From a virus, in IMG/VR virus record IMGVR_UViG_3300050013_000165, positions 1 through 64,000 of that record: DNA of 64,000 nt, one strand, 5' to 3'. Made by a program: the position numbers and the translations under genes. Shown piece after piece: positions 7,835 to 47,071 of this stretch. Under the pieces are notes generated by a model. The model was given only the letters and a program-made list of their open reading frames with translations, was not told the DNA's origin and made no database searches. Every line of letters begins with the position of its first letter. Positions within the stretch are counted from its first letter, which is position 1.

Positions 7835-9487
7835 ATGGCACGCACTATTCCGAACAAGTACCCAGGCAAGTGCTGGGACTGCAAGAACGACGTAGGTGCC
7901 GGACTCGGTACTGCTACGCAACCGGAAGTAAAAGGTAACCCGTGGAAGTTGCAGTGTCGCGTGTGTGCAAGCGGGGAAGTCCCCACACCTGAAGTTGCGA
8001 CACCGACTGCGACTCGTCCGACGTTTCCTCTCACCGATGAGCAAATCGCTGCGGTCGCTTTGTTCGAAGAGGGCGAATCGATTGCAATTCAAGCGGGCGC
8101 AGGAACCGGAAAGACGAGCACACTTGTTGCGATTGCAAAGTCAACAAATCGTCTCGGTCAATACCTTGCGTTCAACAAGCCGATTGCGCTCGACGCTGCG
8201 ATCAAGTTCGCCGGAACGAATTGCTCGGCGGCAACGATTCACTCGGTTGCGCTTCGTCAAGTTCGATCTATCTACAACGCACGTCTGAAGGCTGCAAAGC
8301 CACAGCGCTCGTCTGAGATCGCTCGCTTTCTTGGGATCGACCCGTTCTTTTACACTGTGAACGAAGAAGACAAAGTCGTGCAGACGCACACGCTCGCCGG
8401 TTACGTCAAGCAGGCGATCACGAACTTCTGCAACTCAGCAGACAAGGCTCCTGGGCTTCGTCACATCGCCTACATCGACGGGCTCGACAAGCCAGGTGAG
8501 TACACCAACAACCGCAAGGTTGCACAGCACCTTCTTCCCTACATCCAAGCGGCGTGGTCGGACATCATCAAGAGCGATGGTTACCTTCGCTTCACGTACG
8601 ACCATTACCTGAAGATTTGGGAACTTGGTATCCACGGCGCACCGATCATCCCAGGCGACTACATCCTCTTCGATGAGGCGCAGGACGCTTCGCCAGTTTT
8701 CACCTCGGCCATCGAGCAGCAGGGCAAGCAAGTCGTCTACGTGGGCGATGCACAGCAGGCCATCTATGAGTGGCGTGGTGCGGTAAATGCCCTCGATAAC
8801 GTAAACGCCGACGCAACGACCTACCTCACGAACAGCTTCCGATTTGGTGAAGACATTGCAGCGATTGCGAACAAGGTTCTCGGTCACATTCCGAGCGCTG
8901 TTCTTCGTCTCGTTGGTCGCGGCGCTGCGGGCAAGGTTGACTTCTGCTCGACACCTGACGCCATCTTGACTCGCTCGAACGCCGGAGCCATCACGGTCGT
9001 GTTGGACTACCTCTCGAAGAACAAGCGAGTCCACCTTGTTGGTGGCGGCGGCGAGGTTGAGAGCTTCGCAAAGGCGGCAAAGGAGCTTCAGACCAAAGGC
9101 TCGACGACTCACCCCGAGCTGTCACTCTTCGACTCGTGGAGTGAAGTTCAGGATTACGCAGAGAACGACCCATCGGGTGGCGACCTTGCTCGCCTCGTGA
9201 AGCTCATTGACGACAACGGCGTCGAGAACGTCGTTCGTGCGGTGTCCAACACGGTTTCCGAAGAAGATGCCGACATCGTCGTCTCCACGGCGCACAAGTC
9301 CAAGGGTCGTGAGTGGGACAGCGTGAAGATCGCTGGTGACTTCTCTGAGGCTCGCACAGACGACGGAGAGCTTCGCTTGCTCTACGTGGCAGTTACACGA
9401 GCCCGCTTGCACCTCGACATCGAGTCGTGCGCCCCAGCCGTAGCAATTCGAGACGGCCGTTTCGGCCAGAAAGGAAGTCAATCATGA
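7835..9487 (+). CDS. UvrD/Rep-like superfamily 1 helicase with N-terminal Zn finger
   Basis: AGAGTGKT, FDEAQD, VGDAQQAIYEWRGA, STAHKSKGREW, LLYVAVTRA. Confidence 0.95.
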   Translation: MARTIPNKYPGKCWDCKNDVGAGLGTATQPEVKGNPWKLQCRVCASGEVPTPEVATPTATRPTFPLTDEQIAAVALFEEGESIAIQAGAGTGKTSTLVAIAKSTNRLGQYLAFNKPIALDAAIKFAGTNCSAATIHSVALRQVRSIYNARLKAAKPQRSSEIARFLGIDPFFYTVNEEDKVVQTHTLAGYVKQAITNFCNSADKAPGLRHIAYIDGLDKPGEYTNNRKVAQHLLPYIQAAWSDIIKSDGYLRFTYDHYLKIWELGIHGAPIIPGDYILFDEAQDASPVFTSAIEQQGKQVVYVGDAQQAIYEWRGAVNALDNVNADATTYLTNSFRFGEDIAAIANKVLGHIPSAVLRLVGRGAAGKVDFCSTPDAILTRSNAGAITVVLDYLSKNKRVHLVGGGGEVESFAKAAKELQTKGSTTHPELSLFDSWSEVQDYAENDPSGGDLARLVKLIDDNGVENVVRAVSNTVSEEDADIVVSTAHKSKGREWDSVKIAGDFSEARTDDGELRLLYVAVTRARLHLDIESCAPAVAIRDGRFGQKGSQS

Positions 9488-9705
9488 GCAACCTCAACAA
9501 CCTTCATATCCACGATTACTCGACTGGCGAACTGCCAGAGAGTGACGACCCGCAATGGGACACAAAGCAGCTTCAAGAGGAGTTTGAAGTTCTCGGGTTC
9601 TCTGCTCCATTTGTTGTCGTCCGGCGCAAAGCAGACGGCAAGAAAGGCCTCATGCAGTTCAATCACTCGCCTCGTGTCTATTTTGGATTCGAGCCCGAGT
9701 CATGA
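9484..9705 (+). CDS. conserved phage hypothetical protein
   Basis: WDTKQLQEEFEVLGFSAPFVVVRRKADG...HSPRVYF; ATGA coupling. Confidence 0.7.
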   Translation: MSNLNNLHIHDYSTGELPESDDPQWDTKQLQEEFEVLGFSAPFVVVRRKADGKKGLMQFNHSPRVYFGFEPES

Positions 9706-9881
9706 AACTGCGTTGTCGCTTCGGTTGGCACCGTTGGACCAAATGGGAGGAGGTCGGCACCGCAAGTCGTTGGGTCTTTGCCGACAACAAAGAAAAACTT
9801 GACCGTGGACGTCTTCCGGTTCAAGGGCGAAATTGCGAAGACTGCAACAAGCTGCAATTGAGGGAGCTTCACCTTGACTGA
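9702..9881 (+). CDS. small CxxxxH/CxxC protein (59 aa, not in ORF track)
   Basis: MKLRCRFGWHRWTKW...CEDCN; ATGA overlap. Confidence 0.6.
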   Translation: MKLRCRFGWHRWTKWEEVGTASRWVFADNKEKLDRGRLPVQGRNCEDCNKLQLRELHLD

Positions 9882-9998
9882 CCAAGAGTTCTTGAACAAC
9901 TTTTGGCAGATCGAAAAAGTCGCCGAACAGCTCGACGGCAACATCAACAATTTTCCACAAGCATTTCGGGTAACTAGAGAAAGAGAAGGTAAAAACTG

Positions 9999-10996: not shown

Positions 10997-11506
10997 GTGA
11001 GCGCATGGATGGTTTCAAAAGAGCACATCGACGTCTTGGTGACAGCCAGCATCGCCCTCGGAATTATCCCGAAGGACGAAGCCGACATGACCGGCATTCA
11101 GTTGTGGGACGAGAACTGGAAGAGCATTAACTCTCGATACCCCGACACGATTGACGATCACGAAAGCATCCCTGGTCCCATTTCGTTTCGACCGGAACAC
11201 ATCGCCGAGTACACGTTTGACCCTCGTCCAACCGAGGATTTGATTTACGTGTACAAGCAAGCTGGTTGCTACGGCTATCAATCGTGTGAGCACGATGAAT
11301 GGAAAGACAGCACTGCTTTCAGGATCACAGGGGAAATAGAGACTGAGATTTTGAAGCACACGGGGCTCACCGAAGCAAGCATTCAGAACCACCCCTTGTA
11401 CAAAAAGGCAACATGGGGCGTGCACATTAAAGAAGACGGTTCTCTCTGGCTCGACTCAAATGAGTTCTATGCCTGGTGCCGGATTCAGAACGGTGTGGAT
11501 CAGTAA
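10997..11506 (+). CDS. conserved phage/plasmid hypothetical protein
   Basis: SAWMVS..HID...ENWKSINSRY...CYGYQSCEH. Confidence 0.75.
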   Translation: MSAWMVSKEHIDVLVTASIALGIIPKDEADMTGIQLWDENWKSINSRYPDTIDDHESIPGPISFRPEHIAEYTFDPRPTEDLIYVYKQAGCYGYQSCEHDEWKDSTAFRITGEIETEILKHTGLTEASIQNHPLYKKATWGVHIKEDGSLWLDSNEFYAWCRIQNGVDQ

Positions 11507-11559
11507 CAACAATTCGCAAATAGCGAGAAATGCCATTTCATTTCAACAAGGAGAACCAA

Positions 11560-12135
11560 TTGAGTACAAGAGCAATTGTTGCAGAGCCGTATGGTGATTC
11601 GTGGCGAGGTCGTCACACTCACTCAGACGGATACCCGACATATCGAGCGCGCCATCTTTGGGCGCTCGTAAAGAGGGACGGCTTTGAGAAGGTCCGTAAG
11701 ACCATCTGTGAGGATCACTATGGATGGTCAGTGATCGACGCAGAGCAAGCGGACTTGACGGCTGTCAAAGTTCCGAAGAGCTACGAAGAGGCACAGAAGT
11801 TTGGTTACGGTTCGCCGGAATACGAAGCTTTTAACCTCGGTCCACAAGGCAGCTACGGCGACGGTCGTTTCGTGAATGTTCCAGGCTACGGCGTGGCATA
11901 CACGACGGAAAAAGGTCAAAGTGATGCTGATGACTGGATGACGCCAGAAGACACTCGCGATAGTGAGTGGGCTTACGTTGTTGCGGATAATGGGCTTTGG
12001 GTGTTCAAGACACACATGGGTCCTGGCTTCAACACAGTGACACCGCCGACGCTTCTCGGCATCTTCAACTGGAATGAAGATGAGCCGAATTGGGAAGCAG
12101 TCGAGAACTCGGCTTACGAGTCGGCCGAAGCATGA
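11560..12135 (+). CDS. conserved hypothetical protein (HxDGYP family)
   Basis: AAGGAG RBS, TTG start, STRAIV...HSDGYP...EWAYV. Confidence 0.75.
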   Translation: MSTRAIVAEPYGDSWRGRHTHSDGYPTYRARHLWALVKRDGFEKVRKTICEDHYGWSVIDAEQADLTAVKVPKSYEEAQKFGYGSPEYEAFNLGPQGSYGDGRFVNVPGYGVAYTTEKGQSDADDWMTPEDTRDSEWAYVVADNGLWVFKTHMGPGFNTVTPPTLLGIFNWNEDEPNWEAVENSAYESAEA

Positions 12136-12332
12136 CGACAACTCCTGCGCCTGTTGAAGACGACGGTAAGCGATACAAGATCATTCGGTTCCATCAATTT
12201 GGCGGGTTTGATGGAGACGGGTACAAGAAGACCATTGCCTACGGTCAAACGCGTGAAGAGGCGCAGGAGCACTGTCGTCGTGAAGACACACACGGTAATG
12301 GCTGGTTCGATGGATACGAGGAGCAGAGATGA
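12132..12332 (+). CDS. small conserved phage protein
   Basis: YKIIRF...TREEAQEHC...WFDGY. Confidence 0.7.
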   Translation: MTTTPAPVEDDGKRYKIIRFHQFGGFDGDGYKKTIAYGQTREEAQEHCRREDTHGNGWFDGYEEQR

Positions 12333-15962: not shown

Positions 15963-16544
15963 ATGGCTGCAAAGAACATCAATACACCACAGGCTCTGAA
16001 GCGTCGAATACGAGAGCAAACAATTGTTGACGACAACGGCTGTTGGATTTTCCAAGGAGCCAAAGATCGAGCAGGGTATGGGCGCTTCTATATGGGGCTC
16101 GGGCAGACTCGACGCACTCATCGCCTCACTTATGAATTGTGGGTAGGGCCAATTCCTGAAGGATTAGAGCTAGACCATCTTTGTAATACTCCGGCTTGTT
16201 GTCGTCCATCACATTTAGAACCAGTTACCGGATTAGAAAATAGGCAACGGGGGACAAAACGTCGAAAGCGATGCGGGCGCGGACATTATTACTCAAAGCG
16301 AAATACCTACATTACGCCGCAAGGTGTTCGAATGTGTCGAGAATGTCGTCGAATCCACGGAAGGATCAATGACGCCAAACGACGTCCTTCTCATCTTCCA
16401 AAGCGAATTTCTCCTAATCATTGTTTTCGTGGGCATCTTTTGACTGAAGAGAACACCTATCGCATTGATGGGGAACGTCGGTGTCGAAAATGCAGTGCCG
16501 ACCGGCAAAGAGGTTACCGCCAAGCGAAGAAAGAAGTTGCATGA
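15963..16544 (+). CDS. HNH homing endonuclease
   Basis: GCWIFQG...GYG...HRLTYE...GPIPEGLELDHLC...HLEPVT..EN plus two CxRGH...CxxC modules. Confidence 0.9.
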   Translation: MAAKNINTPQALKRRIREQTIVDDNGCWIFQGAKDRAGYGRFYMGLGQTRRTHRLTYELWVGPIPEGLELDHLCNTPACCRPSHLEPVTGLENRQRGTKRRKRCGRGHYYSKRNTYITPQGVRMCRECRRIHGRINDAKRRPSHLPKRISPNHCFRGHLLTEENTYRIDGERRCRKCSADRQRGYRQAKKEVA

Positions 16545-17206
16545 AGATTGTCATTGGATTTCCTGTGAAGGATAGAGCTTGGGTTCTCCCACAGATGCTT
16601 CAAGCGCTCGAACAGCAAGACGTGACCTTCGAAGTCGTGGCGCTCTATACGGCGTCGGAAGACGATACGGAGCAAATCCTCAAAGACCACGGCGTCGAGA
16701 TTCACTATGACGAGAGCCCCGGCAGACCGCGGCACAAGATCGATGGGCACAACTGGGGGACACTCGATCAGTTCGAGTACATGGCGACACTGCGTAATCG
16801 CCTCGTGGACATCTGCATTGAGAAAGATGCCGATTATTTCTTCTCCCTAGACAGCGACATCATCTTGCCGCTGAACGCATTAGAGAGCCTGCTCGCCTTC
16901 TCTCAAAGCCATCCTGGTGTTGTTTCACCGGCCGTCAATATGACCATCAATCAGACGGCGTGGAACATGATGCGCTGGAACGGATTGATCGGTGTCGCTG
17001 ATCGAACCGGCAGAGCTGCGATAGGTGAGACGGGGCAAGCCGACGTAATCATGGCCGCAATGTTGCTCGACCGATTAGGGATGACAGCGCGCTGGCGACC
17101 AAATCCCAATGGTGAAGACATGGGTTTCTGCCATGATTGCGAAGAGAAGGGAGTCCCTAGATGGTGGGTTCGAGAGATCGTGTGTGACCATCTTATGTTC
17201 AGATAA
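16541..17206 (+). CDS. GT-A (family 2-like) glycosyltransferase
   Basis: IGFPVKDR, RNRL, FSLDSD (DxD), GED. Confidence 0.85.
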   Translation: MKIVIGFPVKDRAWVLPQMLQALEQQDVTFEVVALYTASEDDTEQILKDHGVEIHYDESPGRPRHKIDGHNWGTLDQFEYMATLRNRLVDICIEKDADYFFSLDSDIILPLNALESLLAFSQSHPGVVSPAVNMTINQTAWNMMRWNGLIGVADRTGRAAIGETGQADVIMAAMLLDRLGMTARWRPNPNGEDMGFCHDCEEKGVPRWWVREIVCDHLMFR

Positions 17207-17625
17207 TGGCTGCTCCATACACACCCGAACTGTTTTGGGCCAAAGTAGTTAAGACCGAAACATGTTGGATTTGGCAAGGAAATAGTGACAATGGTCGGGG
17301 TTACTTTTCGATCATGTGGGCTCAAAAACGACGTTACGTGCATCGCGTAGCATGGGAGTTGGTCAATGGTCCCATTCCAGACGGATTACAAATTGACCAT
17401 TTATGCAGAAACAAGCGCTGTGTCAATCCCACTCACCTCGAACCCGTTACAGGACGCATCAACAAATTGCGTGGAAATACAATCACTCGGAGAAATGCGG
17501 AGGTGACACATTGCGTTCGAGGCCATCCTTACGACAAAGAAAACACCATTGTGGGGACTACGCCCCTTGGAACTCCTCGGCGAGCTTGTCGGAAGTGTCG
17601 AAAGCTTTATCGGATGTTTCGTTGA
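17206..17625 (+). CDS. HNH homing endonuclease
   Basis: CWIWQG...HRVAWE..NGPIPDGLQIDHLCRNKRCVNPTHLEPVT. Confidence 0.92.
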   Translation: MAAPYTPELFWAKVVKTETCWIWQGNSDNGRGYFSIMWAQKRRYVHRVAWELVNGPIPDGLQIDHLCRNKRCVNPTHLEPVTGRINKLRGNTITRRNAEVTHCVRGHPYDKENTIVGTTPLGTPRRACRKCRKLYRMFR

Positions 17626-18595
17626 GCTGTTGCTCGATCCAGGTGTAAAGCATTGCGAGTCCGTATTCGAGAGAGACTTCCGGTTCCCATCCGCAGACTT
17701 CTTTGGCGAGAGAAATGTCCGCATTGCGTGCATCTACACCGATTGCTCCATCGACATAGCGGCGACTCAAACGAACACCGCCAATCTGTTCGACTATTGA
17801 AACAAGATCATCAACGGTGACCGAACGGTCGCTTCCGATGTTTACCGGCTTTGAGTAATCGGATTCCATCAAGGCGATGGTTCCTCGAACGCAATCCTCC
17901 ATGTGAAGGTAACTGCGGAGCTGCTTGCCGGTCCCCCAAATCTCGATCTCATGGTTCCCTGTCTTGACGGCCGTTGCTACTTTGCGGCACATCGCTGCCG
18001 GAGCCTTCTCCTTGCCGTCGTTCCACGTTGAGTGCTCGCCGAAGACGTTGTGGTATCGAGCGATGCGGACTTCGAGTCCTTGCTCTTCGGCGTAATGCTT
18101 CATTAGCTCTTCCATGTAGAGCTTCGAGAATCCGTAGCCTTCCTCGGGCTGTGCAGGCCATGCCATGTCTTCTGACATTTGCCAATCGTTTGACTGACCA
18201 GAACCACCAACCATGTACTTGGTGTTTTGTAGATTTGTGTTGTAAACACAAGCGCTCGACGAAAAGAAGACCCGTGGTACTCCGGCTTTGACTGCTTCCC
18301 GAAGGATCGCTATGCCAATTTCAATGCTCTCGGCACACGCCACTTTGTGGGTGGTGATGTAACCGATGCCGCCCATGTTCTCGGCAAGATCGTAGATGGC
18401 ATCAGCTCCTCGAAACGCCCCCGAACCGCCAACTTTGGTGCAGTCGAGTTGCACGTTCTGTGCCTGATTGTGTAATTGCCACCATTCGTTCTTTGGCTTG
18501 ATGTCGATGGCTCGAACTTCGTTTCCTCGGACCAATAGCTCCCTAACCAAATGTCCGCCAATGGCACCACCGGCCCCGCAAACAACGATCTTCAT
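17558..18595 (-). CDS. GDP-mannose 3,5-epimerase-like NAD-dependent epimerase
   Basis: GAGGAIG, LAENMGGIGYI, SSSACVY, YGFSK, EKAPAAMCRK match the GME signature. Confidence 0.9.
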   Translation of the reverse strand: MKIVVCGAGGAIGGHLVRELLVRGNEVRAIDIKPKNEWWQLHNQAQNVQLDCTKVGGSGAFRGADAIYDLAENMGGIGYITTHKVACAESIEIGIAILREAVKAGVPRVFFSSSACVYNTNLQNTKYMVGGSGQSNDWQMSEDMAWPAQPEEGYGFSKLYMEELMKHYAEEQGLEVRIARYHNVFGEHSTWNDGKEKAPAAMCRKVATAVKTGNHEIEIWGTGKQLRSYLHMEDCVRGTIALMESDYSKPVNIGSDRSVTVDDLVSIVEQIGGVRLSRRYVDGAIGVDARNADISLAKEVCGWEPEVSLEYGLAMLYTWIEQQLNETSDKAFDTSDKLAEEFQGA

Positions 18596-18681
18596 TAGAG
18601 GTTCCCTCCGAGTCGGAATTGAATTGAGATCGACGGTAGCTGGCAAGTAGAAAGGGGTCATAGTCAATTTCGGGAGATCAA

Positions 18682-19254
18682 ATGTCGTTCGCCGAGGAGT
18701 ATTTGAACGAGACCCGTGCGATTATCGATCAGCTCGATTACGAGCAAATCGAAGCAATCGCTCAGGGTATTGCCGGAGTTAGACGGCTTTTCATCCTCGG
18801 TGTTGGGGGCTCAGCAGCAACGGCTTCACATGCAGTGAACGACTTCCGAAAGATTTGTGGTGTCGAGGCCTACGCACCAACTGACAACGTGGCCGAGCTA
18901 ACAGCGCGCACGAACGACAACGGTTGGGGGACAACTTTCGTTGACTGGCTAAAGGTTTCGAAGCTCGACAGTGACGACGGTGTTCTAATCCTCTCGGTCG
19001 GCGGCGGGGACAGCCACGGAGCTTCACCCAATCTTGCTGAAGCGATTAAGTACGCTCGCCGGACATTGGGAATCGAGAAGGGTATCGGAGCAACAATCTT
19101 TGGCATCGTTAGTCGCGACGGGGGGTACACGAAACGATTTGGTGATCGTGTGCTAGTAATCCCTCCGCTTTACGAGAACCGGATTACACCTCACACGGAA
19201 GGATTGTGTTCAGTGATCTTGCACTTAATCGTTTCTCATCCGGCACTCTCATGA
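18682..19254 (+). CDS. gmhA: sedoheptulose-7-phosphate isomerase (SIS domain)
   Basis: GVGGSAATASHAVNDFRK, ELTARTND, SPNL, TPHTEG. Confidence 0.88.
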   Translation: MSFAEEYLNETRAIIDQLDYEQIEAIAQGIAGVRRLFILGVGGSAATASHAVNDFRKICGVEAYAPTDNVAELTARTNDNGWGTTFVDWLKVSKLDSDDGVLILSVGGGDSHGASPNLAEAIKYARRTLGIEKGIGATIFGIVSRDGGYTKRFGDRVLVIPPLYENRITPHTEGLCSVILHLIVSHPALS

Positions 19255-19940
19255 AGCTCTTTTGCGATGGTGCCGATTTGCGCTCAATGGAGCGTTATGC
19301 CGAGGAAGATTTCATTCACGGATTCACCACGAATCCGACCTTGATGGCGAAAGAAGGTGTGCGACAGTACGAAACCTTCGCCAAGGAAGCGCTACGACTC
19401 ACGGTCAAACCGATCTCGTTCGAAGTACTGGCCGACGAACCTTCCGAGATGGTGCGCCAAGCTCGAATCATCGGTAGCTGGGGCGAAAACGTCTTCATCA
19501 AGATTCCAATCCAAACGACCAAAGGTCGCCACACGACTGAGATCATCTCGACGCTCAGTAGGGAAGGGTTCAGGATCAATGTCACCGCAGTGTTCACCGA
19601 GGCGCAGGTTTCTCGTGCAGCGACGGCACTCACTGGTGGCATCAATCGAGGGATCATTTCGGTGTTCGCCGGACGAATTGCCGACACTGGCGTTGATCCA
19701 ATAAGGACGATACGTTACGCACGAGACTGGGCAGGCAGATGGTCCGAAGTTCTTTGGGCGAGCCCGCGTGCAGTGTGGGACTACTACGCAGCCGATTATG
19801 CGGGCGCACAGATCATCACCATGACACCAGAGCTGATCGAGAAGATGCGAGCAAGTGCGGGCAAAGACCTCACTCTGTTTTCGCTTGAAACGGTGGTGAT
19901 GTTTCACAACGACGCCAAGGCTTCTGGTCTCTCGCTTTGA
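19251..19940 (+). CDS. tal: transaldolase (short TalC/FSA type)
   Basis: LFCDGAD, GFTTNPTLM, SFEV, IKIP, INVTAVF, SVFAGRIADTG, LWASPR. Confidence 0.92.
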   Translation: MKLFCDGADLRSMERYAEEDFIHGFTTNPTLMAKEGVRQYETFAKEALRLTVKPISFEVLADEPSEMVRQARIIGSWGENVFIKIPIQTTKGRHTTEIISTLSREGFRINVTAVFTEAQVSRAATALTGGINRGIISVFAGRIADTGVDPIRTIRYARDWAGRWSEVLWASPRAVWDYYAADYAGAQIITMTPELIEKMRASAGKDLTLFSLETVVMFHNDAKASGLSL

Positions 19941-20890
19941 TCATTACTCAAACCCCGCTGCGCCTCACACTCGGCGGCGGGGGCACCGACGACCCAACCT
20001 TCGTAAAGGAACACGGAGGCTTTGCACTAACGGTGGCAATCGACAAACACGTCTTCGTGGGCATTCACAAAATGCTCGATCCTGGCTATCGTTTGAAATA
20101 TGCCAAGGAAGAGATCGTCAACGAACTCGATGAGATCAAGCACCCGATGTTTCGGGAAGCGCTCCGCTATTACCAAGTTCCTCCTGGCGTTGAGCTTGTC
20201 TCTCTTGCTGACATTCATTCTGGTAGTGGTCTTGGTTCTTCTGCTGCCTTCACAGTCAGTCTTTGTCGTGCTCTGGCTGCTTTCACGGGTCGCCACCCCA
20301 TTCACCGCTATGAGATAGCTCGGGTTGCTGCACACATCGAGCTAGAAGTTCTTGGTCGCGGTGGAGGTGTGCAAGATCACTGGGCGTGTGCGCTCGGGGA
20401 CCTTCAGGCGTTGACGTTTCGTCGTGACGGCTCAGTTGATTACGACTACATCCCAATGCAAGGACACGTCGTCAAAGAGCTTCAAGCAGGGCTCTGCATG
20501 TTCCTGGTCGGCTACTCACGCGATGCCGACACGGTGCTCGTCGAACAGTCTCAGGACGGGCTCGCCGAGATCAAAGCTCGGGGGTATGAGGCCTACGAAC
20601 TTCTCTGTCAAGGTGAGCTTCGGACGTGGGCCGAGAACATGAATTACCACTGGGAGGCCAAGAAGAAGCGCTCGAATTTGATCTCGTCAAACGAGGTCGA
20701 TGAGATGTACGCTTACGGTCTCGCCAATGGAGCCATAGGCGGCAAGCTCGTCGGTGCCGGAGGTGGGGGCTTCCTAATGTTCTATACCGAGGAGCCCGAG
20801 CGATTGTCGTCGGCGTTCCGAGGCAAACTTCAAGAGGTTCAATTTGAGTTCACAGGAGATGGAACCGAAACCATCACACGCACTCCCTAA
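19937..20890 (+). CDS. hddA: GHMP kinase, heptose-7-phosphate 1-kinase
   Basis: TPLRLTLGGGGTD, GSGLGSS, QD, GGKLVGAGGGGF. Confidence 0.9.
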   Translation: MIITQTPLRLTLGGGGTDDPTFVKEHGGFALTVAIDKHVFVGIHKMLDPGYRLKYAKEEIVNELDEIKHPMFREALRYYQVPPGVELVSLADIHSGSGLGSSAAFTVSLCRALAAFTGRHPIHRYEIARVAAHIELEVLGRGGGVQDHWACALGDLQALTFRRDGSVDYDYIPMQGHVVKELQAGLCMFLVGYSRDADTVLVEQSQDGLAEIKARGYEAYELLCQGELRTWAENMNYHWEAKKKRSNLISSNEVDEMYAYGLANGAIGGKLVGAGGGGFLMFYTEEPERLSSAFRGKLQEVQFEFTGDGTETITRTP

Positions 20891-21419
20891 GCAGTTGCAG
20901 TGTGTGGTGCTGGCCGGTGGGTATGGCACTCGATTGGCTCCCCTCACCGACAACTGCCCGAAGATCATGGTGCCTGTTCTTGGGCGTCCCTTTGCCTATT
21001 GGCAGCTTGATCTCATGAAGAAGTGGGGCGTCACTGAGGTTGTCTATTGCGTCAATCATCTCGCTCACAAAGTGAGAGAGCTGGGCGACGATTACAAAGG
21101 CATCCGCTTGCTCTACAGCGAAGAGAAGAACCGACCACCAGATGCATTGTGGAAGTTTGCTGTTCGCAACGCACTCCCGCTTCTCGATGAAGAGTTCTTG
21201 TTGATGTACGGCGACTCTTATTTGCCGGACGTGGACATTGACTCAGTGAAAGCGTTTGGTCCTTCACTCATCACGTCGTGGCAAGGGATCGACTACGGGT
21301 TGTGGCACTGCCATCGAAGCGAGTTCGCATTCGCCGAGCTTCAAATCATCGAGCGCTTTCACGAGATCGGTTCTCTCGAAGGGCTCGTCGAGCTAGAGGC
21401 GTATCTACAAAACCGGTAA
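20859..21419 (+). CDS. hddC: sugar-1-phosphate nucleotidyltransferase (HddC-like, compact)
   Basis: LAGGYGTRL...PKIMVPV.GRPF, YGDSY, FHEIGS. Confidence 0.8.
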   Translation: MEPKPSHALPKQLQCVVLAGGYGTRLAPLTDNCPKIMVPVLGRPFAYWQLDLMKKWGVTEVVYCVNHLAHKVRELGDDYKGIRLLYSEEKNRPPDALWKFAVRNALPLLDEEFLLMYGDSYLPDVDIDSVKAFGPSLITSWQGIDYGLWHCHRSEFAFAELQIIERFHEIGSLEGLVELEAYLQNR

Positions 21420-22169
21420 TGGTGGGCGGCGCATGAAGTCGATGTTGCACTCGTTCGAGCCCTCAGGGTCGATGCGCCAGTTCGCCAACGGGTTGTCGCT
21501 CTTGTAGTACATCAGCGTTTCAGTGATGAACTTGAAGCGTGGCCCAGCGAGTTCGAGCGCAGTCAAGGTGAACTGCACATCACAGCCCTTCTCGTACCAC
21601 GCACCTATCTTCGGTCCACCGTCGTAATGAAACTGATCCACGGGGACGTTGTTGAAGATGCGACCTTTCATCGTTCGAAGGTGGTTGAAGTACACAGCGC
21701 CGAACGCTCGATAGGAGCGGTTCGCTATCACTTCCGGCGGGTACTCGCGTGCCGGTGGGCAACCAGGCTCTGGTGGGTCCGGTAGGTAGCTCCCATACGT
21801 CGCCAGCGTGTCGTCGGCGTAATAGTCGAGCAAGTGCGCAAGAACATCGGGGTGTGCAAAGCGATCACCATCAAGGTCAAGAAAGATGATGATGTCGTCA
21901 TCGGCAGGCTCCATCTTCTGGATGCCTTCCCAACGCATTTGGGTGTCGAGCTTCCACGGAGCTTCATCGTTTCCGTTGAAGATGATTTTGTTGGGGTAAT
22001 CAAGAAGGGCGCACTCTATTTGGTGTCCAGCGGGATCAGTCGCCCAGTCTTCGGTCTCATAGGAGATGCAGAGTTGCCAGTCCTTGACAGTCTGCATTCC
22101 AACGGAGGAGATCGTTTGGTGAATCTGTTGTGGTGTGCACTTCCAACCGTTGCTGATGATTTTGAACAT
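21405..22169 (-). CDS. GT-A glycosyltransferase (paralog A)
   Basis: LDLDGDRFAH..VL, TYGSY, HLRTMK, LELAG, Y..DNP. Confidence 0.75.
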   Translation of the reverse strand: MFKIISNGWKCTPQQIHQTISSVGMQTVKDWQLCISYETEDWATDPAGHQIECALLDYPNKIIFNGNDEAPWKLDTQMRWEGIQKMEPADDDIIIFLDLDGDRFAHPDVLAHLLDYYADDTLATYGSYLPDPPEPGCPPAREYPPEVIANRSYRAFGAVYFNHLRTMKGRIFNNVPVDQFHYDGGPKIGAWYEKGCDVQFTLTALELAGPRFKFITETLMYYKSDNPLANWRIDPEGSNECNIDFMRRPPLPVL

Positions 22170-22978
22170 TAGAACTTCTTCTTTAGTGGCGGCTTTGCCC
22201 TGAAGTTGTCATCGCACTCTTTGTTCTCGTTGTTATTCATGCGCCACGCCGAGAACGGATTGAGTGAGTTGTAGACCATCAGCACCTCTTCGATGTAGCG
22301 ATGGCGGTAGCCGACCATTTCGAGCGCGGGGATCATCGAGGTGACGTCATCGACTTTCTTATACCACTCTCCCTTTTTGTGTGGGTACTTTTCAGCGCCG
22401 TTGCCGAGAACGTCTTCGGACCACTGGAACTGATCGAGTGGGATTGCGTTGAAGACCTCGAACTTCATGGTGCGCAAATCAGCAGCACGATAGGGGGCAG
22501 AGCGAAACGAGCGATCCACAATGACCTTGTTGTCGTAGGGAAGGGCTCGCAGTGGAGAACCGACAGGTGGCACGTTCTCGTAGTTCCCATACGTCAAGAG
22601 CGGAAAGCCGTCAGCGTAAGCGTCGTGCACTCTGTCCAACACTTGGTGGTGTGCAAACCGATCCCCGTCAAGGTTGAGCCAAATGATGACGTCTTCGTCG
22701 TCGGGCTCCATCGCCTGAATTGCCTCATAGCGAGCCTTCGTACCGTAAATGAAGTTCTCTTGGCCGGTGCGAATTGTGTACCTGAATTGCGTGTCGCGAT
22801 CAGATGCCGCTTTGATCCACCATTTGAGTCGGTAATCGACAGAGAAGGTTTCTTCTTCGTTCTCTGACTCGTAGGAGATCATGACCTCAAAGTCACGACG
22901 ACTCTGCAAATCGATTGAGTTGAGGGTCCACATCATGGAGTCGAAACAGCGCCACCCGGCGCACACAATCTTAAACAC
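22169..22978 (-). CDS. GT-A glycosyltransferase (paralog B)
   Basis: LNLDGDRFAH..VL, TYGNY, LRTMK, YNSLNP; homologous to the neighbour. Confidence 0.75.
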   Translation of the reverse strand: MFKIVCAGWRCFDSMMWTLNSIDLQSRRDFEVMISYESENEEETFSVDYRLKWWIKAASDRDTQFRYTIRTGQENFIYGTKARYEAIQAMEPDDEDVIIWLNLDGDRFAHHQVLDRVHDAYADGFPLLTYGNYENVPPVGSPLRALPYDNKVIVDRSFRSAPYRAADLRTMKFEVFNAIPLDQFQWSEDVLGNGAEKYPHKKGEWYKKVDDVTSMIPALEMVGYRHRYIEEVLMVYNSLNPFSAWRMNNNENKECDDNFRAKPPLKKKF

Positions 22979-23516
22979 GAGGCGTCAACCGAAAGATGTC
23001 GTCTTTGAGATCACAATCGAAATCGTTTTTGATTGCGGTCTCTGCCACCCACTCGTAATGGGGGTAGTCCTTGAACTCCTCTGTGTGCTCCGGCATACCA
23101 CCAAAGAGACGAGCATCGTCGATGAGGATCACGCTCCCCTTTGGTGCAGTTACTGCTGCTTCAAGTTCCGCAACGATGGGGGTGTCGCTGTCGGCAGCTT
23201 TGGCTGTGCCGTCGCCCGAGTAGTGGCCGTCCAACCAAAAGAGAATTGGTTGGTGATCAATGACGAGATGCTTCAGTAGCTCGCCGCTGTTTCCATGAAG
23301 ACAAGTCACATGGGCGAAGGGTGCAAATCGTGCGCGACAGTGATCGTAAAGCCCTTCATCAAGTTCAATGGTGATGATCTTGTCGAAGTCTTCAATCAAG
23401 CCACCGGGAGTGGTTCCATATCCACTTCCACTTTCGATGAGAACGTGGAGATCGTAGGAACGGGCATAGCCACGCATCATGTTCATGCGCTGCTCGAACT
23501 CTAAGATGTGTGACAT
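22971..23516 (-). CDS. class I SAM-dependent methyltransferase-like protein
   Basis: IESGSGYG, TIELD, GNSG, FWLDGH, ILIDD. Confidence 0.8.
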   Translation of the reverse strand: MSHILEFEQRMNMMRGYARSYDLHVLIESGSGYGTTPGGLIEDFDKIITIELDEGLYDHCRARFAPFAHVTCLHGNSGELLKHLVIDHQPILFWLDGHYSGDGTAKAADSDTPIVAELEAAVTAPKGSVILIDDARLFGGMPEHTEEFKDYPHYEWVAETAIKNDFDCDLKDDIFRLTPRV

Positions 23517-24163
23517 CAGTTGCTCCTTACTGCCAGATAGTTTCGGTATTCGTAATCGTCGCTTGCGTCTCGAATGGGGCGCATGTGTCCGTCTCGGTAC
23601 TCGTAGATGGTGAAAGCCGATGGAAGCCAATCAATGGCGTCTTGAAGACGCTCACTCCACGGAGAGCCAGGTCCCCATGTGCCGCCGTACTCGAACTGCA
23701 CGGCCTGGATCATCTCTTCAGCAAGTGCGTGTGTTGCACCTTTGATGACAGGGACTTCATAGCCCTCAGTATCGATCTTCAAGAAAATGTCGTCTTCAAC
23801 TTTGTAATTGAGTAAATAGTTGTCAATGGTTGTGACACTGACTTCTTCCCACTCCTCGCCCTCGAACACGCCACGCAAGTGCGATTGACAAATGTCGTCG
23901 GTGCCGAGTGTGAGCTTTGTGCGTTCGATGATGTTCCCAACAGCCGTGTTGATTACCGACGTTCTCAAATCACCCGAGTACTTTTCAGCGAGAAGCATTG
24001 CAGCACCTGAGCGAGGTTCGAATAGGTGCGCCTCAACGTGCCCGCAGTGCTCTCGAACGCAATCGGTGTAGGCACCTTCTGCTGCACCGACATCGAACAG
24101 GACGAACTCGTCGTGGAATAAGTTGAAGACCATCTCGATAATGGCGTGCTCGTCAGCCTGCAT
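23516..24163 (-). CDS. FkbM-family methyltransferase
   Basis: FDVGA..G, FEP, LKIDTEGYE..VIKGA, QFEY. Confidence 0.9.
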   Translation of the reverse strand: MQADEHAIIEMVFNLFHDEFVLFDVGAAEGAYTDCVREHCGHVEAHLFEPRSGAAMLLAEKYSGDLRTSVINTAVGNIIERTKLTLGTDDICQSHLRGVFEGEEWEEVSVTTIDNYLLNYKVEDDIFLKIDTEGYEVPVIKGATHALAEEMIQAVQFEYGGTWGPGSPWSERLQDAIDWLPSAFTIYEYRDGHMRPIRDASDDYEYRNYLAVRSN

Positions 24164-24788
24164 TGTTCTTCCGTGCATAGAGAGCATCGCCCCAACCCTG
24201 GCCTGGAACCCAGCACGTCTCGACGCGATCAAAGTCCTTCAGAATTCCATCGAGTTCCCAAACCTGATCGCAGTCGATGTAGACCGGTTGGTCGTTGACT
24301 TCGCTCATTACAAATTGAAGCGATGGCAGAAGGCGGGCTGCTCCACGAAGAGCGTGAGCTTCAACACCCTGGATATCCAGTACGAGCATGTTCACATTGG
24401 TGATGTCGAACATGTCCACGAGTGTGTCGATACGTCGGGTCTTCATTGGCTTGGTTTCAACAACGGTGATCTCGGGGGAGAACTGGACGTGTGTGCCAAA
24501 GGAGAGGATCGAAGAAGACATGCCGTCGAGGTTGGTGACATTGAAGTTGAACTCGACTTCGTCTTCATCCCACACAAGAGCGTGGATTACTTTGTGGCCT
24601 CGGTGCACGACGTTCTGTGCGAGTGTCACGAGGATGTTGTCGTTGGCTTCCACCCACCACACGTTGTCAATCCCAGCGCTCTGGTAGTAGTCGGCTTCCT
24701 CGCCGATGCGAGCCCCACAATGAATGACGCCAGTCACCTTGTTAGCCAGATCGTATTTGGCAGCAATGGTGTTCCAATCAAGCAGCAT
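24153..24788 (-). CDS. FkbM-family methyltransferase
   Basis: GVIHCGA..GEE, EAN, SSSIL, LDIQGVE..ALRGA, EVN, WGDALY. Confidence 0.9.
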   Translation of the reverse strand: MLLDWNTIAAKYDLANKVTGVIHCGARIGEEADYYQSAGIDNVWWVEANDNILVTLAQNVVHRGHKVIHALVWDEDEVEFNFNVTNLDGMSSSILSFGTHVQFSPEITVVETKPMKTRRIDTLVDMFDITNVNMLVLDIQGVEAHALRGAARLLPSLQFVMSEVNDQPVYIDCDQVWELDGILKDFDRVETCWVPGQGWGDALYARKNNAG

Positions 24789-25638
24789 CTACGACTCTCC
24801 ATCCGGCGGGGAACAAAATTGACTCATCAATGAAATCGTTCAGGGGACCGTACACCTTGCTCGGGCGTACAACATGGTCCGGCGGAACATTAGCGAGAAT
24901 GGCTCCCCAAATCCCAAACGTGGAGCCCGTTACGACGAGGTAATCACACGCCGCAAGCGTGAACAAATCGATCCAATCAGATGGTTCGGTTGTTCCATAG
25001 AGCGGGTCGTGTTCTTTGAAGTAGTCGCGCCCGTTGCCAAAGAAGCAGTTTGACTTCCAGTGTTGTTGGCACCAAATAACGTCGTCTGAGATGATGACGG
25101 TGGAGCGGACAAACTCATTTGCTTTGTCGTGAACTTCTCGTTCAGCGGTCTTGTAGTAACCAAGCGACATGCACAGGTGGTAATCGAGATTGTTTGGCAC
25201 ACCTGGGTCTGCTCCACCAACTTTGTCTGAACGACGCACATGGATACCGAGACTGGTTCCAGAAGCGGTGCCGATGTAATCAGGATTGCCTGCAAGCATT
25301 TGCACAGCATGGTTACTGGGGGCCAGGTACTCACGAATCTCGTCGATGCAGTGCCAGAACAAATTGACGTCTTGAAGATATGGCCGACAACGAGGGTCCA
25401 TGTGATGAGTGAGTTCCGAGTCCATAGGAGTAGTTGCTGTCCCTGCCGATATATAGCCTGCCATTACCAAATTGATGGCGAACATCTCATTTGGAATTGA
25501 GAAGTATGGTCGGTAAATCCAATCGGCAGGGAAGATTGGGCGTTCGCCAAGAGTGCGAGCAACACCGACAGTGGATGCGAATTCGAAGAGAGCGTTGCCT
25601 AGACGACCAAATCGTCCGAGATTTGGGTAGGCAATCAC
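24778..25638 (-). CDS. GT11 alpha-1,2-fucosyltransferase-like protein
   Basis: GRLGN.LF, YLQD, IHVRRSD, SDD..WC, STFGIWGA. Confidence 0.88.
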   Translation of the reverse strand: MIAYPNLGRFGRLGNALFEFASTVGVARTLGERPIFPADWIYRPYFSIPNEMFAINLVMAGYISAGTATTPMDSELTHHMDPRCRPYLQDVNLFWHCIDEIREYLAPSNHAVQMLAGNPDYIGTASGTSLGIHVRRSDKVGGADPGVPNNLDYHLCMSLGYYKTAEREVHDKANEFVRSTVIISDDVIWCQQHWKSNCFFGNGRDYFKEHDPLYGTTEPSDWIDLFTLAACDYLVVTGSTFGIWGAILANVPPDHVVRPSKVYGPLNDFIDESILFPAGWRVVDAA

Positions 25639-26159
25639 GAAGCTCTCTTTTTTCTCGGCTTCGTTTCAGCTACACCTTTTGGCCGACCAGTGGACGGCTG
25701 CCCAACAATGTGTAATCCGTATCGCTCTGTGGCGATCTTCCGACTCTTGTTGCGAGGTCCGCTGATCTCGTTGTTCTCAAATCGTTTGATGGTGTTGCAA
25801 TTGGCACACAACAGTTGGTAGTCATCAAGATTTGCGAGCACCTTGTTGTAGAAGCGCCTCGTGCAATTACCTAGCTCGCGTTGTTCAGCAGTTCCACCAC
25901 CATTGATGTGATCGATCTGAAGAGCCCGCCAATCGTCGAACTCGCAACGAACACATTTGCCGCCCATTAGGGCGAGCATTTCCAGACGTCTTTTCAGCAT
26001 GCTCTTTTTTGAAGCGAGTTTGTTGTGTTCGATACACAGAGATGAGAAGCCATCCCGACTGTTTTTGTGCGTGTAGAAGCTGCTTATGGGCAAATCTTCT
26101 TTGCACTGCGGGCACCACTTGGTTTGCAACTCATCTCCTCCCCACCCCACTTCTTTCAT
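25635..26159 (-). CDS. HNH-type homing endonuclease
   Basis: GGKCVRC..DDWRALQIDHINGGG...YQLLCANCN. Confidence 0.85.
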   Translation of the reverse strand: MKEVGWGGDELQTKWCPQCKEDLPISSFYTHKNSRDGFSSLCIEHNKLASKKSMLKRRLEMLALMGGKCVRCEFDDWRALQIDHINGGGTAEQRELGNCTRRFYNKVLANLDDYQLLCANCNTIKRFENNEISGPRNKSRKIATERYGLHIVGQPSTGRPKGVAETKPRKKRAS

Positions 26160-29384: not shown

Positions 29385-29707
29385 TGCCAGCAACGCAAGA
29401 ACGATTAGATGCAATGGTTGTGATGTTTCGGGAACTCCCAATTAACGAAGGATGGCCGGACACAGACACCAATATCGAGGGTCGAGTACACCAGGGGTTC
29501 GCCGTCGAAGCAGGAGACGTCGGTGGTGGTAATGAGGAAGACGTTCGCTTCTCGGCATTGCGCTTGCTTGCACGCAATTGTGCACAGTACGAGGCCTATC
29601 GAATTGAGAAGGACCCGCATGCCGGTCGTTTCGAGAACCTTCAAATCTTCCATGACGGAAATAAGTGGTGCTGGTATTGCACCACGCCCGCTCTTGCGGC
29701 GGTGTAA
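29384..29707 (+). CDS. hypothetical protein
   Basis: TAATG coupling at both ends. Confidence 0.65.
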   Translation: MPATQERLDAMVVMFRELPINEGWPDTDTNIEGRVHQGFAVEAGDVGGGNEEDVRFSALRLLARNCAQYEAYRIEKDPHAGRFENLQIFHDGNKWCWYCTTPALAAV

Positions 29708-31080
29708 TGGATTTCTATTTCGCTGGGGCTGAGAACCCTCAGTACGCAAAGGTCCTTGCTCGATTAGGAGTGAAGCACGTAGCTATCTCATTCAACGAGT
29801 GGCGACGACGTCACGCCAACGACAACCTCGATCTTCATTTCGCTGAAGACGTGAAGGTGTGCATTACCGCCGGGGTCTCCAAGAAGAATGAAGACTTCGA
29901 TTGGGACGACTTCGCTGCCGACTACTGCTTCTTTGCCGAGCACAATCTCGACGCTCTGGTCTACGACATCGACGCCGATGGATGCCCGCTTCCGGTTCGA
30001 ACAGAGGTGCGTCGAATTCTTGGTGACTTCCCCAACTCAGTGATCTTCCCAATGGAGGGCGAAGACCTCGACGAACTTGCACGAGAGTACGAACACATCG
30101 GAATTAACGCCCGACTCAACAAATCGAAACACATCACCGATCTCCGGCGCATTCGATCAAAGCTCTACGCCTCCAACATCACGAGCCCAACCACGCTTCG
30201 GGACGGTCGATTTGTTGCCACCACATCATTTGCTTGGCTCTCTGCACGCAAATACGGAGAGTTGTGGATATGGTCGCGCAACAAGCTCGTGCACTATTCC
30301 GACGACAATCGAGCAAAAGGCGTCAAAGCACACACAAAGGAGATTGAGGCGCTTGGTGTCGATCCTCTTGCGTGTCTGCAAAACGACACGAATTCGCTGG
30401 TCACAGTGGCTGTTTCAAGCATGTTGATGATGGAACAGTTCGTCTCTGGTCGCACCCGAGACGTCAAAGCTGTGGCTGCTACATCTGAAAATATCGTGAG
30501 TGCCGATCCCTTGGCAAAAGAGCTTTTTGGACCTGCTATAACCGTCCAAAACTCTGACCTTGTACCTGTTCGAGAACGTCAACGCGTGACCCTACCGGTC
30601 ATATCAATAGAAGACCAGGATGGCAAGCAAATTGTTCGTTCAAACGCCGATTCTTTGCGCCAGTGCAATAGCTGCTACATCCGCAATGATTGCCCTCGTT
30701 TTGAGGACTCTGCGTCGTGCGCCTTCTCTTTGCCGGTCACGATCTCCACTGCAAGGGATTGGGAATTGGTCGGGGCAGCCCTATTGGAGATTCAGGCAAA
30801 GCGAATTATGTTTGGTCACTTCGCTGATGAAGTGAGTGGTGAGGGTCCATCAGCACGAGTTGGACAAGAGATGGATCGCTGGTTCAAAATGGTTGCCAAC
30901 CTGAAGGAATCAATGGTTCCGATTCCAATGGCTGGTGAAGGGGCACTGTCCAAGGCATTCGGAGAAATGCCCGCCGAGCTAATGGGAGGTTTTGGTGCCA
31001 CCGAAGAAGAAGGCTCATACGACGAAGAAGACGACTTCGAAGAAGGAGTCGTTGTCGATAGGGTTGCCAGCGTGGGATAA
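29707..31080 (+). CDS. conserved phage protein: possible degenerate TGT-like barrel plus Cys4 domain
   Basis: FYFAGAE..., TSFAWLSARKYG, LRQCNSCYIRNDCPRF....CAF. Confidence 0.6.
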   Translation: MDFYFAGAENPQYAKVLARLGVKHVAISFNEWRRRHANDNLDLHFAEDVKVCITAGVSKKNEDFDWDDFAADYCFFAEHNLDALVYDIDADGCPLPVRTEVRRILGDFPNSVIFPMEGEDLDELAREYEHIGINARLNKSKHITDLRRIRSKLYASNITSPTTLRDGRFVATTSFAWLSARKYGELWIWSRNKLVHYSDDNRAKGVKAHTKEIEALGVDPLACLQNDTNSLVTVAVSSMLMMEQFVSGRTRDVKAVAATSENIVSADPLAKELFGPAITVQNSDLVPVRERQRVTLPVISIEDQDGKQIVRSNADSLRQCNSCYIRNDCPRFEDSASCAFSLPVTISTARDWELVGAALLEIQAKRIMFGHFADEVSGEGPSARVGQEMDRWFKMVANLKESMVPIPMAGEGALSKAFGEMPAELMGGFGATEEEGSYDEEDDFEEGVVVDRVASVG

Positions 31081-31453: not shown

Positions 31454-31816
31454 CCGGGACCGCCGTCCAAAGATGGTTGGCGGCTTCGGTGGCGTGTTCT
31501 CCACATTCCATGCGTCAATGCCCTTAATGACTTCCTTCATGGGCTCGATGGCAGCACGACGGACCTTCTCTTGTTCGAGCAGGATGTCATAGGCGGCTTC
31601 GAGTTGCCCTCGTGCACCGAGAGCGCTGCTCGGTGGGTGTCCCGGCGGGATTGAGAGCAGCGTCTTCATGACAAGGCGTTGATCGGCCTGCATTCGTTGT
31701 CCGGCATAGAGAAACGCCATCATCTGTGAGCGCCAATTGACCTCGCGCAACAACAGCCAAATCGTTAGCACCGTGAGTGCCAACGCAACGGCCAGAACAA
31801 TCACGAGAATTTTCAC
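31436..31816 (-). CDS. membrane-anchored hypothetical protein
   Basis: GGAGG RBS, GTG start, N-terminal TM helix. Confidence 0.6.
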   Translation of the reverse strand: MKILVIVLAVALALTVLTIWLLLREVNWRSQMMAFLYAGQRMQADQRLVMKTLLSIPPGHPPSSALGARGQLEAAYDILLEQEKVRRAAIEPMKEVIKGIDAWNVENTPPKPPTIFGRRSRLLLGG

Positions 31817-32439
31817 TTCACGCCTCCAAATTTCTGTAGCTCGTCCCACCAGTCATCAACTGATTTGTTCAAATCGTCGAGCGTCCCGTCATTACGGAAC
31901 ACACCACTGAAGTCGTCAATGCCAAGTGAGTGTTCGCTTGAATGATCATTGAGTGGCCCTTTATCGCCTCGTTGAATCCACAAATCCCACCCGCTGTGAT
32001 AATGAATTGCGTCAAGTTCTTGTGGGTAGCGCACCCCAGTGATGACAACATTCTTCTGTTCAATTCGTGCCGGTTGGACGACATTCTTGAACAACCAATC
32101 AATCCAAATCCTCTCGTTGCCGAGAAGGTTGCGTCCGACGTCGGTGCCAAGTGTCTGAAACAACCTACGCACTTCGGGATTCTCTTTGCTCGCTGCATAC
32201 CCAATACGAGCATGTAGGTCTTGATAGCGCTCCATGCCGTATCGACCATCGGTGAAGTCTTCACCAAGGAATTTTCCATCGGCAAAGGCGTGGCAAACGG
32301 GAACCCAAGGATTGAGAATGAGCAATGCCTTCTCTAATCCAGATGAGCAACCACAACGCACCCAACCGTGTTTGGTTTCAAGCCGTTCTGCGAATGCATC
32401 CTTGCCAGCTTCTGCAAATCCACCAAGACCAAGGATCAT
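31813..32439 (-). CDS. deoxynucleoside monophosphate kinase
   Basis: ILGLGGFAEAGKD, RRLFQTLGTDVGR, VVITGVRYPQE, HSSE, NDGT. Confidence 0.9.
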   Translation of the reverse strand: MILGLGGFAEAGKDAFAERLETKHGWVRCGCSSGLEKALLILNPWVPVCHAFADGKFLGEDFTDGRYGMERYQDLHARIGYAASKENPEVRRLFQTLGTDVGRNLLGNERIWIDWLFKNVVQPARIEQKNVVITGVRYPQELDAIHYHSGWDLWIQRGDKGPLNDHSSEHSLGIDDFSGVFRNDGTLDDLNKSVDDWWDELQKFGGVK

Positions 32440-43354: not shown

Positions 43355-43574
43355 GCGCGCCTCGAACCTCGGTGACGATGAGTTAGTGAAGCTCCTCGAA
43401 GCGTCCATCGCATCTATGTCGAGCTACGTCCCCGAGTACCGCTCGACGAGAGATGTTGCTTTTCTCGGGGAGATTCGACTGTCGGCTGAAATGGCCTACT
43501 CACTTGCTGATGAACTATTCAGTCGAGGGCAAGACTCCGCAGTCAAGCGCACTCGACAGTTCTTGGGCCGCTAA
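43293..43574 (+). CDS. conserved helical phage protein
   Basis: TAATG-coupled to the GT gene. Confidence 0.6.
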   Translation: MLRRRTTAKQNETPNQSKLAERASNLGDDELVKLLEASIASMSSYVPEYRSTRDVAFLGEIRLSAEMAYSLADELFSRGQDSAVKRTRQFLGR

Positions 43575-44777: not shown

Positions 44778-44880
44778 TGGAAGACATTCGAGATCGAGAC
44801 TGGTGTGCTTGTGTTGATCCACTTCTCAATCAGTGCAAGGAGCGTCACTGTCCGTGGAAGAGAAAGCGACTTGAAGAAGA

Positions 44881-46889: not shown

Positions 46890-47071
46890 GTTTGTGGATT
46901 AGGTGCAAAATGGCCGGGGCTGTAATTTCGGCAGTACCCGAAGCCATCTATCGCGTTCATGTGAACGAGGGTAGTCGCAACAAACAGCCGCCAGAGTTGC
47001 ACGGTCAGACCTATATGCAGATTCAGCAGGAACACCAAATGGAATACATGCGAATGTTCGGTCGAACATGA
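46886..47071 (+). pseudogene. displaced duplicate C-terminus of the 45591-46223 GT
   Basis: 28 of 48 residues identical by manual alignment (AIYRVHV, SRNKQ, HG..Y.QIQ.EH). Confidence 0.85.

Follow-up and report, generated by a model that had tools for sequence, protein, structure and literature searches.

The window analysed here, the first 64,000 nucleotides of the IMG/VR virus record IMGVR_UViG_3300050013_000165, includes at positions 17206-21419 a block of genes that would supply a phage with an unusual activated sugar. The block consists of a gene for an HNH homing endonuclease, a gene for an enzyme resembling GDP-mannose 3,5-epimerase (GME) and, divergent from the latter, a cassette of four overlapping genes for an isomerase, a transaldolase (Tal), a sugar-phosphate kinase and a nucleotidyltransferase. 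As judged by sequence comparison, the cassette genes do not appear to be orthologous to the textbook set GmhA/HddA/HddC and represent a distinct, widespread cassette. The phage copy is particular in that it includes no phosphatase gene, lies beside a GME-type epimerase gene and is inserted into a glycan island. Its product is probably a sugar of seven or eight carbons in activated form, for use by the glycosyltransferases of the phage itself. The reading that the acquired block combines the HNH gene, the GME-like epimerase gene and the phosphatase-less cassette and serves these glycosyltransferases in the manner proposed below is given a probability of about 0.6.

A preliminary description of the window had placed isomerase, transaldolase, kinase, nucleotidyltransferase and epimerase genes here, and all five are present at the expected positions and belong to the expected families. 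The layout that it proposed, an overlapping operon divergent from the epimerase gene, was borne out by the gene calls and the junction sequences. The isomerase and transaldolase genes overlap by ATGA, the transaldolase and kinase genes by TTGA, and the nucleotidyltransferase gene overlaps that of the kinase by 32 nt if it starts at the ATG at position 20859. A consensus scan of the 86-bp divergent region found no sigma-70-type promoter, and promoter and terminator scans gave no signal exceeding that of shuffled controls.

Comparison of the cassette enzymes with heptose enzymes

The similarity of the isomerase, designated SIS', to GmhA is weak. It scores 29.6 bits with TIGR00441, against an equivalog cut-off of 209 bits (all equivalog cut-offs used are those of NCBIfam), and matches GmhA in the PDB with an E value of 2.5e-5. 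The best matches of an AlphaFold model built with 17 homologues (pLDDT 87.9) were GmhA structures, at TM 0.70-0.74. SIS' is thus not a GmhA orthologue and falls in a separate subfamily, though the fold and residues H50, D54 and H181 are common to both. We take these residues to correspond to His61, Glu65 (as Asp) and His180 in E. coli numbering. Where GmhA has Gln-Glu, SIS' proteins have an invariant insertion, R-I-T-P-H-T-E.

A SIS' profile split 301 Pseudomonadota genomes into seven with a match of at least 296 bits and a remainder in which all matches, including canonical GmhA, reach at most 104 bits. Further matches to the profile, in the score range of canonical GmhA, are present in six of the seven SIS'-bearing genomes. 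The family comprises at least 8,000 clusters at E <1e-5 among the matches listed, the top ones being 57-72% identical, and relatives of SIS' are encoded in at least 563 stretches of metagenome sequence. No SIS' isomerase was found in any of 50,697 deposited phage genomes.

Two variant isomerase genes were seen among the contigs and loci of the comparison set, which carry L-numbers. In L046 (7668-8561), SIS' has an N-terminal extension of ~110 residues with a weak HAD (PNK3P) match, and this putative phosphatase-isomerase fusion may substitute for a separate HAD gene. In L030, from Spirochaetia, one frameshift within a run of G residues interrupts the isomerase gene (9412-9982) and may be a sequencing error or mark a recent pseudogene; the gene is otherwise intact, and its product is 65% identical to the phage protein.

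The best PDB matches of the kinase are the heptose kinases WcbL/HddA (E 3e-35). With the HddA model NF049969 it scores 140 bits, compared with a cut-off of 600 bits and with 454 bits for the canonical HddA of L030. The nucleotidyltransferase is short and generic, with a GGxGTRLxPLT motif. It scores 57.9 bits with the HddC model NF049965 (cut-off 300 bits), and generic NTP_transferase models score equally high or higher.

Distribution of the cassette

The cassette was found in at least 37 IMG/VR contigs, in hundreds of metagenome contigs and in several bacterial phyla. A search of IMG/VR with the transaldolase returned 27 contigs, in which the transaldolase gene, wherever the region is covered, lies between genes for SIS' (42-51% identical) and for a GHMP kinase; L011, the contig annotated in detail, also has genes for a GmhB-like HAD phosphatase and a nucleotidyltransferase. 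A search with the isomerase added 10 contigs, all with a transaldolase gene beside that of the isomerase. The SIS'-Tal-kinase linkage is found as well in metagenome-assembled genomes of Gammaproteobacteria, Deltaproteobacteria and Spirochaetia, and in many loci it is joined by HAD and nucleotidyltransferase genes. Bacterial cassettes sit in surface-glycan loci. In the gammaproteobacterial metagenome-assembled genome L037, one operon encodes the kinase, nucleotidyltransferase, HAD protein, isomerase, transaldolase and a GME-like epimerase, and is followed by a gene for a WcaI-type glycosyltransferase. A megablast search of the phage region against deposited phages gave no match, and no paper was found that describes the cassette or links a transaldolase with hddA or hddC.

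Role of the transaldolase

The phage transaldolase scores 249 bits with TIGR02134, for which the cut-off is 282 bits and the L037 orthologue reaches 285 bits. It has the Schiff-base Lys (in FIKIP) and a Tal-type Phe (in SVFAGR). Phe at that position marks transaldolases, and Tyr marks fructose-6-phosphate aldolases.

The best known phage transaldolase is the cyanophage TalC, and the phage protein is like it in being a small (about 220-240 aa) phage-encoded member of the family; 371 phage records match at low identity. That the gene is a general pentose-phosphate auxiliary metabolic gene of this kind, placed in the cassette by chance, is nevertheless very improbable. The protein is 34% identical to TalC, as compared with 45-53% to cassette and bacterial transaldolases, and its gene is translationally coupled on both sides inside a sugar-activation operon. 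The gene also adjoins that of SIS' in all 37 viral loci that cover the region, and HAD-Tal fusion proteins exist (P0040). The pentose-phosphate role of talC was inferred from a gene context other than a sugar-activation operon.

The viral loci alone would suggest that SIS' and Tal form an obligate pair. This was ruled out by cassettes lacking Tal in two less biased samples, the 301 Pseudomonadota genomes and 80 metagenome loci. Among the latter, 21 loci are well flanked, the isomerase gene having 3 kb or more of sequence to either side, and 15 of these include Tal. Three of the well-flanked loci (L073, L095 and L122) are cassettes complete in kinase, nucleotidyltransferase, isomerase and phosphatase that have no Tal. 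In one proteobacterial lineage, SIS' is paired with an HldE-like enzyme of reversed domain order, and no cassette-type transaldolase is present. Since Tal is facultative, the supply of a normal metabolite, such as sedoheptulose-7-phosphate, fits better than a step that yields a substrate not available otherwise. The preliminary description had taken tal for a precursor-supply gene, unlike talC. Its distance from TalC and its presence in most cassette loci make this plausible, but the five cassette genomes first examined carry other Tal-family genes and a supply role is therefore not forced.

The reversed-domain enzyme (513 aa) adjoins SIS' in L066 (10631-12172), L067 and L013 (12571-14022). 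Its N-terminal domain is cytidylyltransferase-like and its C-terminal domain resembles PfkB heptose kinases, which is the reverse of the order in HldE. This arrangement resembles that in Coxiella, for which papers on the O antigen describe CBU0674 as a phosphoheptose isomerase and CBU0678 as a reversed-domain enzyme and mention no transaldolase.

The epimerase and its link to the cassette

The open reading frame of the epimerase extends over 17558-18667 on the minus strand, but the gene itself begins with the ATG at 18595, located 8 nt after GGAGGG. The protein matches Arabidopsis GDP-mannose 3,5-epimerase (PDB 2c59) over its full length with an E value of 3e-65. SSAC, YGFSK and EKAP of the phage enzyme align with SSAC, YGLEK and EKAP of 2c59, so that the acid/base Cys and Lys are kept, and the Ser-Tyr-Lys triad of the short-chain dehydrogenase/reductase (SDR) type found in the solved GME is conserved in the alignment. 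The SSAC cysteine, YxxxK motif and EKAP lysine named in the preliminary description are thus all retained. The phage enzyme shares full-length homology and catalytic residues with plant GME (PDB 2c59 and 8sg0) and bacterial homologues, and differs from the plant enzyme in an extra 9-residue insertion after SSAC, in being phage-encoded and in the head-to-head position of its gene with a higher-sugar cassette.

In L037, the epimerase gene follows directly after that of Tal in the same operon, and its product is 44% identical to the phage epimerase. In L046, a GME-like gene, GT11 and GT10 genes and the cassette share one locus. GT11 and GT10 are fucosyltransferase families that use GDP-beta-L-fucose, and hence a GDP-linked, L-galacto-configured donor fits. 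A functional link between epimerase and cassette is plausible, on circumstantial grounds. That the nucleotide would be GDP, and that the cassette product would be the substrate of the epimerase, is suggested solely by gene context.

Predicted pathway and alternatives

In the pathway proposed, the transaldolase would use fructose-6-phosphate to form a ketose phosphate, most likely sedoheptulose-7-phosphate with erythrose-4-phosphate as acceptor, and SIS' would isomerise it to an aldose phosphate. The kinase would then phosphorylate C1, a host phosphatase would remove the distal phosphate, and the nucleotidyltransferase would activate the sugar, probably with GTP. By inverting C3 and C5, the epimerase would create a ring of L-galacto or L-gulo configuration. 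Attachment of the sugar would fall to the GT11 and GT2-type transferases, FkbM-type methyltransferases would decorate the glycan, and the target would probably be virion proteins or the host envelope. A seven-carbon chain is somewhat favoured, eight carbons are clearly less probable, and any other length is unlikely. The product may be a sugar other than the textbook D-glycero-D-manno-heptose.

Several observations weigh against this pathway. SIS', the kinase and the nucleotidyltransferase all score far below the equivalog cut-offs of GmhA, HddA and HddC. All five cassette genomes first examined have further Tal-family genes. In L030, the cassette is followed 2 kb on by genes for canonical HddA (454 bits), GmhA (145 bits) and an HddC-GmhB fusion, and in L037 genes for a canonical-type GmhA and a GmhB fusion adjoin it. 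GME-like genes occur without the cassette in three viral contigs (L059-L061), none of the 21 well-flanked metagenome cassettes includes one, and the epimerase may simply use host GDP-mannose. Finally, a gene for a GmhB/HAD-IIIA phosphatase was found neither in the window, as already noted in the preliminary description, nor in the whole 101,468-bp record. The completeness of the record is estimated by CheckV at 68%. Homologues of the genes at its two ends (99794-100249 and 168-836) adjoin each other in the sister phage L050, and for this reason the record probably covers nearly the whole genome and the absence of the phosphatase gene is probably real. The open reading frames at 21405 and 22169 were considered as a hidden phosphatase and ruled out, as both encode GT-A glycosyltransferases, and a weak match to PF13242 within the GT11 gene (E 0.0135) was regarded as noise.

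The GDP-D-glycero-alpha-D-manno-heptose pathway of Campylobacter, Burkholderia, Yersinia and Aneurinibacillus relies on the same superfamilies in a corresponding logical order (an SIS isomerase, a GHMP kinase and an NTP_transferase), and the best solved relatives of the phage enzymes are GmhA and WcbL/HddA. The preliminary description assigned the phage genes to this pathway, with Tal boosting sedoheptulose-7-phosphate and the epimerase converting the product to a GDP-L-galacto-heptose. Its choice of enzyme families was right. Among characterised proteins, heptose enzymes are closest to the isomerase and the kinase, Tal is facultative, and the GT11 gene, together with GT10 in L046, points to an L-fucose-like GDP-sugar donor. 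The assignment to canonical GmhA, HddA and HddC is doubtful all the same, given the low scores of the three enzymes, the separate isomerase subfamily marked by RITPHTE, a built-in transaldolase, the missing GmhB and a full canonical set beside the cassette of L030. Because the cassette coexists with canonical sets in L030 and L037, plain redundancy with GDP-D,D-heptose synthesis is unlikely.

To our knowledge, no characterised route other than the lincosamide sugar pathway brings together the five enzyme classes of the cassette family, and an eight-carbon product is for this reason a serious alternative. In the lincosamide GDP-octose pathway these are the transaldolase LmbR, isomerase LmbN, kinase LmbP, phosphatase LmbK and nucleotidyltransferase LmbO (PMC12945683, Table 1). 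Four of the five classes are encoded by the phage and all five by related cassettes such as those of L037, L030 and L042, a likeness that is one of enzyme class. By this logic, an LmbR-like Tal would move a C3 unit to ribose-5-phosphate to give octulose-8-phosphate, SIS', kinase and nucleotidyltransferase would act as LmbN, LmbP and LmbO, and the resulting nucleoside diphosphate (NDP)-octose would be reshaped by the epimerase. An altered active-site segment in the distinct SIS' subfamily, the coexistence of the cassette with canonical heptose genes, and the finding that each genome checked (n=5) has the cassette Tal in addition to other Tal-family genes are consistent with such a route. The lincosamide sub-pathway, however, sits in a Streptomyces antibiotic cluster and not in a phage or a surface-glycan locus, and the phage has no phosphatase gene. 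Moreover, Tal is missing from the three complete cassettes named above, from six of the 21 well-flanked loci and from one proteobacterial lineage, and octoses are rarely reported in bacterial glycans. An octose is therefore considered possible and its assignment tentative; the fuller version, in which the GME-like enzyme forms an L-configured octose for a methylated virion glycan, is rather unlikely. Were it true, octoses would be widespread among the surface sugars of microbes and viruses, as a class so far overlooked.

The cassette and the epimerase might also work independently, the epimerase acting on GDP-mannose of the host to provide GT11 with GDP-L-galactose or GDP-L-gulose, and a GT2-type transferase using the cassette product unepimerised. 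The separate occurrence of GME-like genes and cassettes described above is in keeping with this division, as is a match to plant GME about as good as that to the L037 enzyme. A GT11 gene is also present in L050, which has neither gene set. On the other hand, epimerase and cassette arrived in the phage in one block, and their counterparts lie side by side in L037 and in a shared locus in L046. Independent action is a quite credible possibility, although not the expected one.

Should the cassette act in the way proposed, phages would not only carry glycosyltransferases but also produce rare activated sugars themselves, and a very common environmental gene set labelled automatically as 'D-sedoheptulose 7-phosphate isomerase' and 'transaldolase' may make an undescribed sugar. 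Some metagenomic phage transaldolase genes that might be mistaken for pentose-phosphate auxiliary genes sit inside the cassette.

Insertion of the block into a glycan island

The record derives from an uncultured virus, a tailed phage by gene content (large terminase, portal, major head protein and helicase genes). The large terminase and its counterpart in the Streptomyces phage BRock group share 45% identity, and the terminase and lysin domains are actinophage-like. The closest relative found is L050, with a terminase 66% identical. Its island has the same order of GT11, methyltransferase, 22971-type gene, one GT2-like gene and flanking GT2 (Table 1). L050 also encodes one further GT2. Missing from it are the genes for the HNH endonuclease and the epimerase and all four genes of the cassette. 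As L050 keeps the island without the block, the island is considered ancestral in the lineage, and 17206-21419 is, on this comparison of gene order, a horizontally acquired insertion that brought in a bacterial gene set and has the HNH endonuclease gene first. L050 carries instead, directly after the terminase gene (11037-12176), a gene for an NDP-sugar 6-dehydrogenase of the UDP-glucose/GDP-mannose dehydrogenase family (E 1e-28), which suggests that the sugar-nucleotide genes serving a common glycosyltransferase island differ between related phages.

Table 1. Genes of the inserted block and of the adjoining glycan island (positions in the window)
Feature	Position	Strand	Basis
GT2-like glycosyltransferase, left border of inserted block	16481..17206	+	Weak PF00535; 50% identical to syntenic L050 gene
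HNH homing endonuclease, first gene of block	17206..17625	+	PF13392, 66 bits; no L050 counterpart
GDP-mannose-3,5-epimerase-like extended SDR, 345 aa	17558..18595	-	PDB 2c59, E 3e-65; ribosome-binding site
Divergent intergenic region, 86 bp, between epimerase gene and operon	18596..18681		Sequence read
SIS' isomerase, GmhA-fold subfamily, RITPHTE insertion	18682..19254	+	Profile, alignment, structure model
Transaldolase, TIGR02134 type	19251..19940	+	ATGA-coupled to isomerase gene
GHMP sugar-phosphate kinase, HddA/WcbL-like	19937..20890	+	TTGA-coupled to transaldolase gene
Compact sugar-1-phosphate nucleotidyltransferase, ~186 aa	about 20859..21419	+	GGxGTRLxPLT motif
GT-A glycosyltransferase	21405..22169	-	DxD motif; paralogue of 22169 gene, 37% identity
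Viral GT2-type glycosyltransferase	22169..22978	-	ESM Atlas feature score 0.96, TM 0.85 to viral GT2 clusters
Conserved island protein, possible methyltransferase	22971..23630	-	Weak Erm-type match; 51% identical to syntenic L050 gene
FkbM-family methyltransferase	23516..24232	-	PF05050, 43.6 bits; TIGR01444, 60 bits
Methyltransferase	24153..24788	-	phrog_8156, E 1.5e-15; 39% identical to L050 gene
GT11 (fucosyltransferase-family) glycosyltransferase	24778..25638	-	PF01531; phrog_2644, E 5e-26; 49% identical to L050 gene

The GT11 protein scores 49.9 bits with PF01531 (gathering score 23.9) and covers profile positions 129-266 of 298. A second island on the plus strand (43574-47787) has at least three GT2-type genes, with Pfam matches at 44881, 45564 and 47068; the open reading frame at 43574 had been counted as a glycosyltransferase in the preliminary description. 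It lies just upstream of a lysin-like gene with an Rv2525c domain (49249-50103) and of structural genes. Four HNH/endonuclease VII homing-endonuclease genes are located in or beside the two islands, at 15963-16544, 17206-17625, 25635-26159 and 44319-44777.

In total, the phage encodes ~eight glycosyltransferases and three methyltransferases, and this unusually large glycan toolkit makes it a good system for studying what phages glycosylate and why. Virion proteins are glycosylated in some mycobacteriophages, and virion glycosylation in actinobacteriophages was reportedly treated by Freeman et al. in Cell Host Microbe in 2023. The phage resembles actinobacteriophage virion glycosylation loci in its clustered GT2 glycosyltransferase and methyltransferase genes near structural genes, and differs from them in adding its own sugar-nucleotide synthesis genes. 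As a guess, the acceptor of the glycan would be virion proteins in the first place and the host envelope in the second, with DNA the least likely.

A 471-aa protein encoded at 29665-31080 on the plus strand matches queuine tRNA-ribosyltransferase-like (DpdA-type) proteins (phrog_887, E 1e-12), which may point to 7-deazaguanine DNA modification. At 31813-33155 on the minus strand, a gene for a ThyX thymidylate synthase adjoins one for a deoxynucleotide monophosphate kinase.

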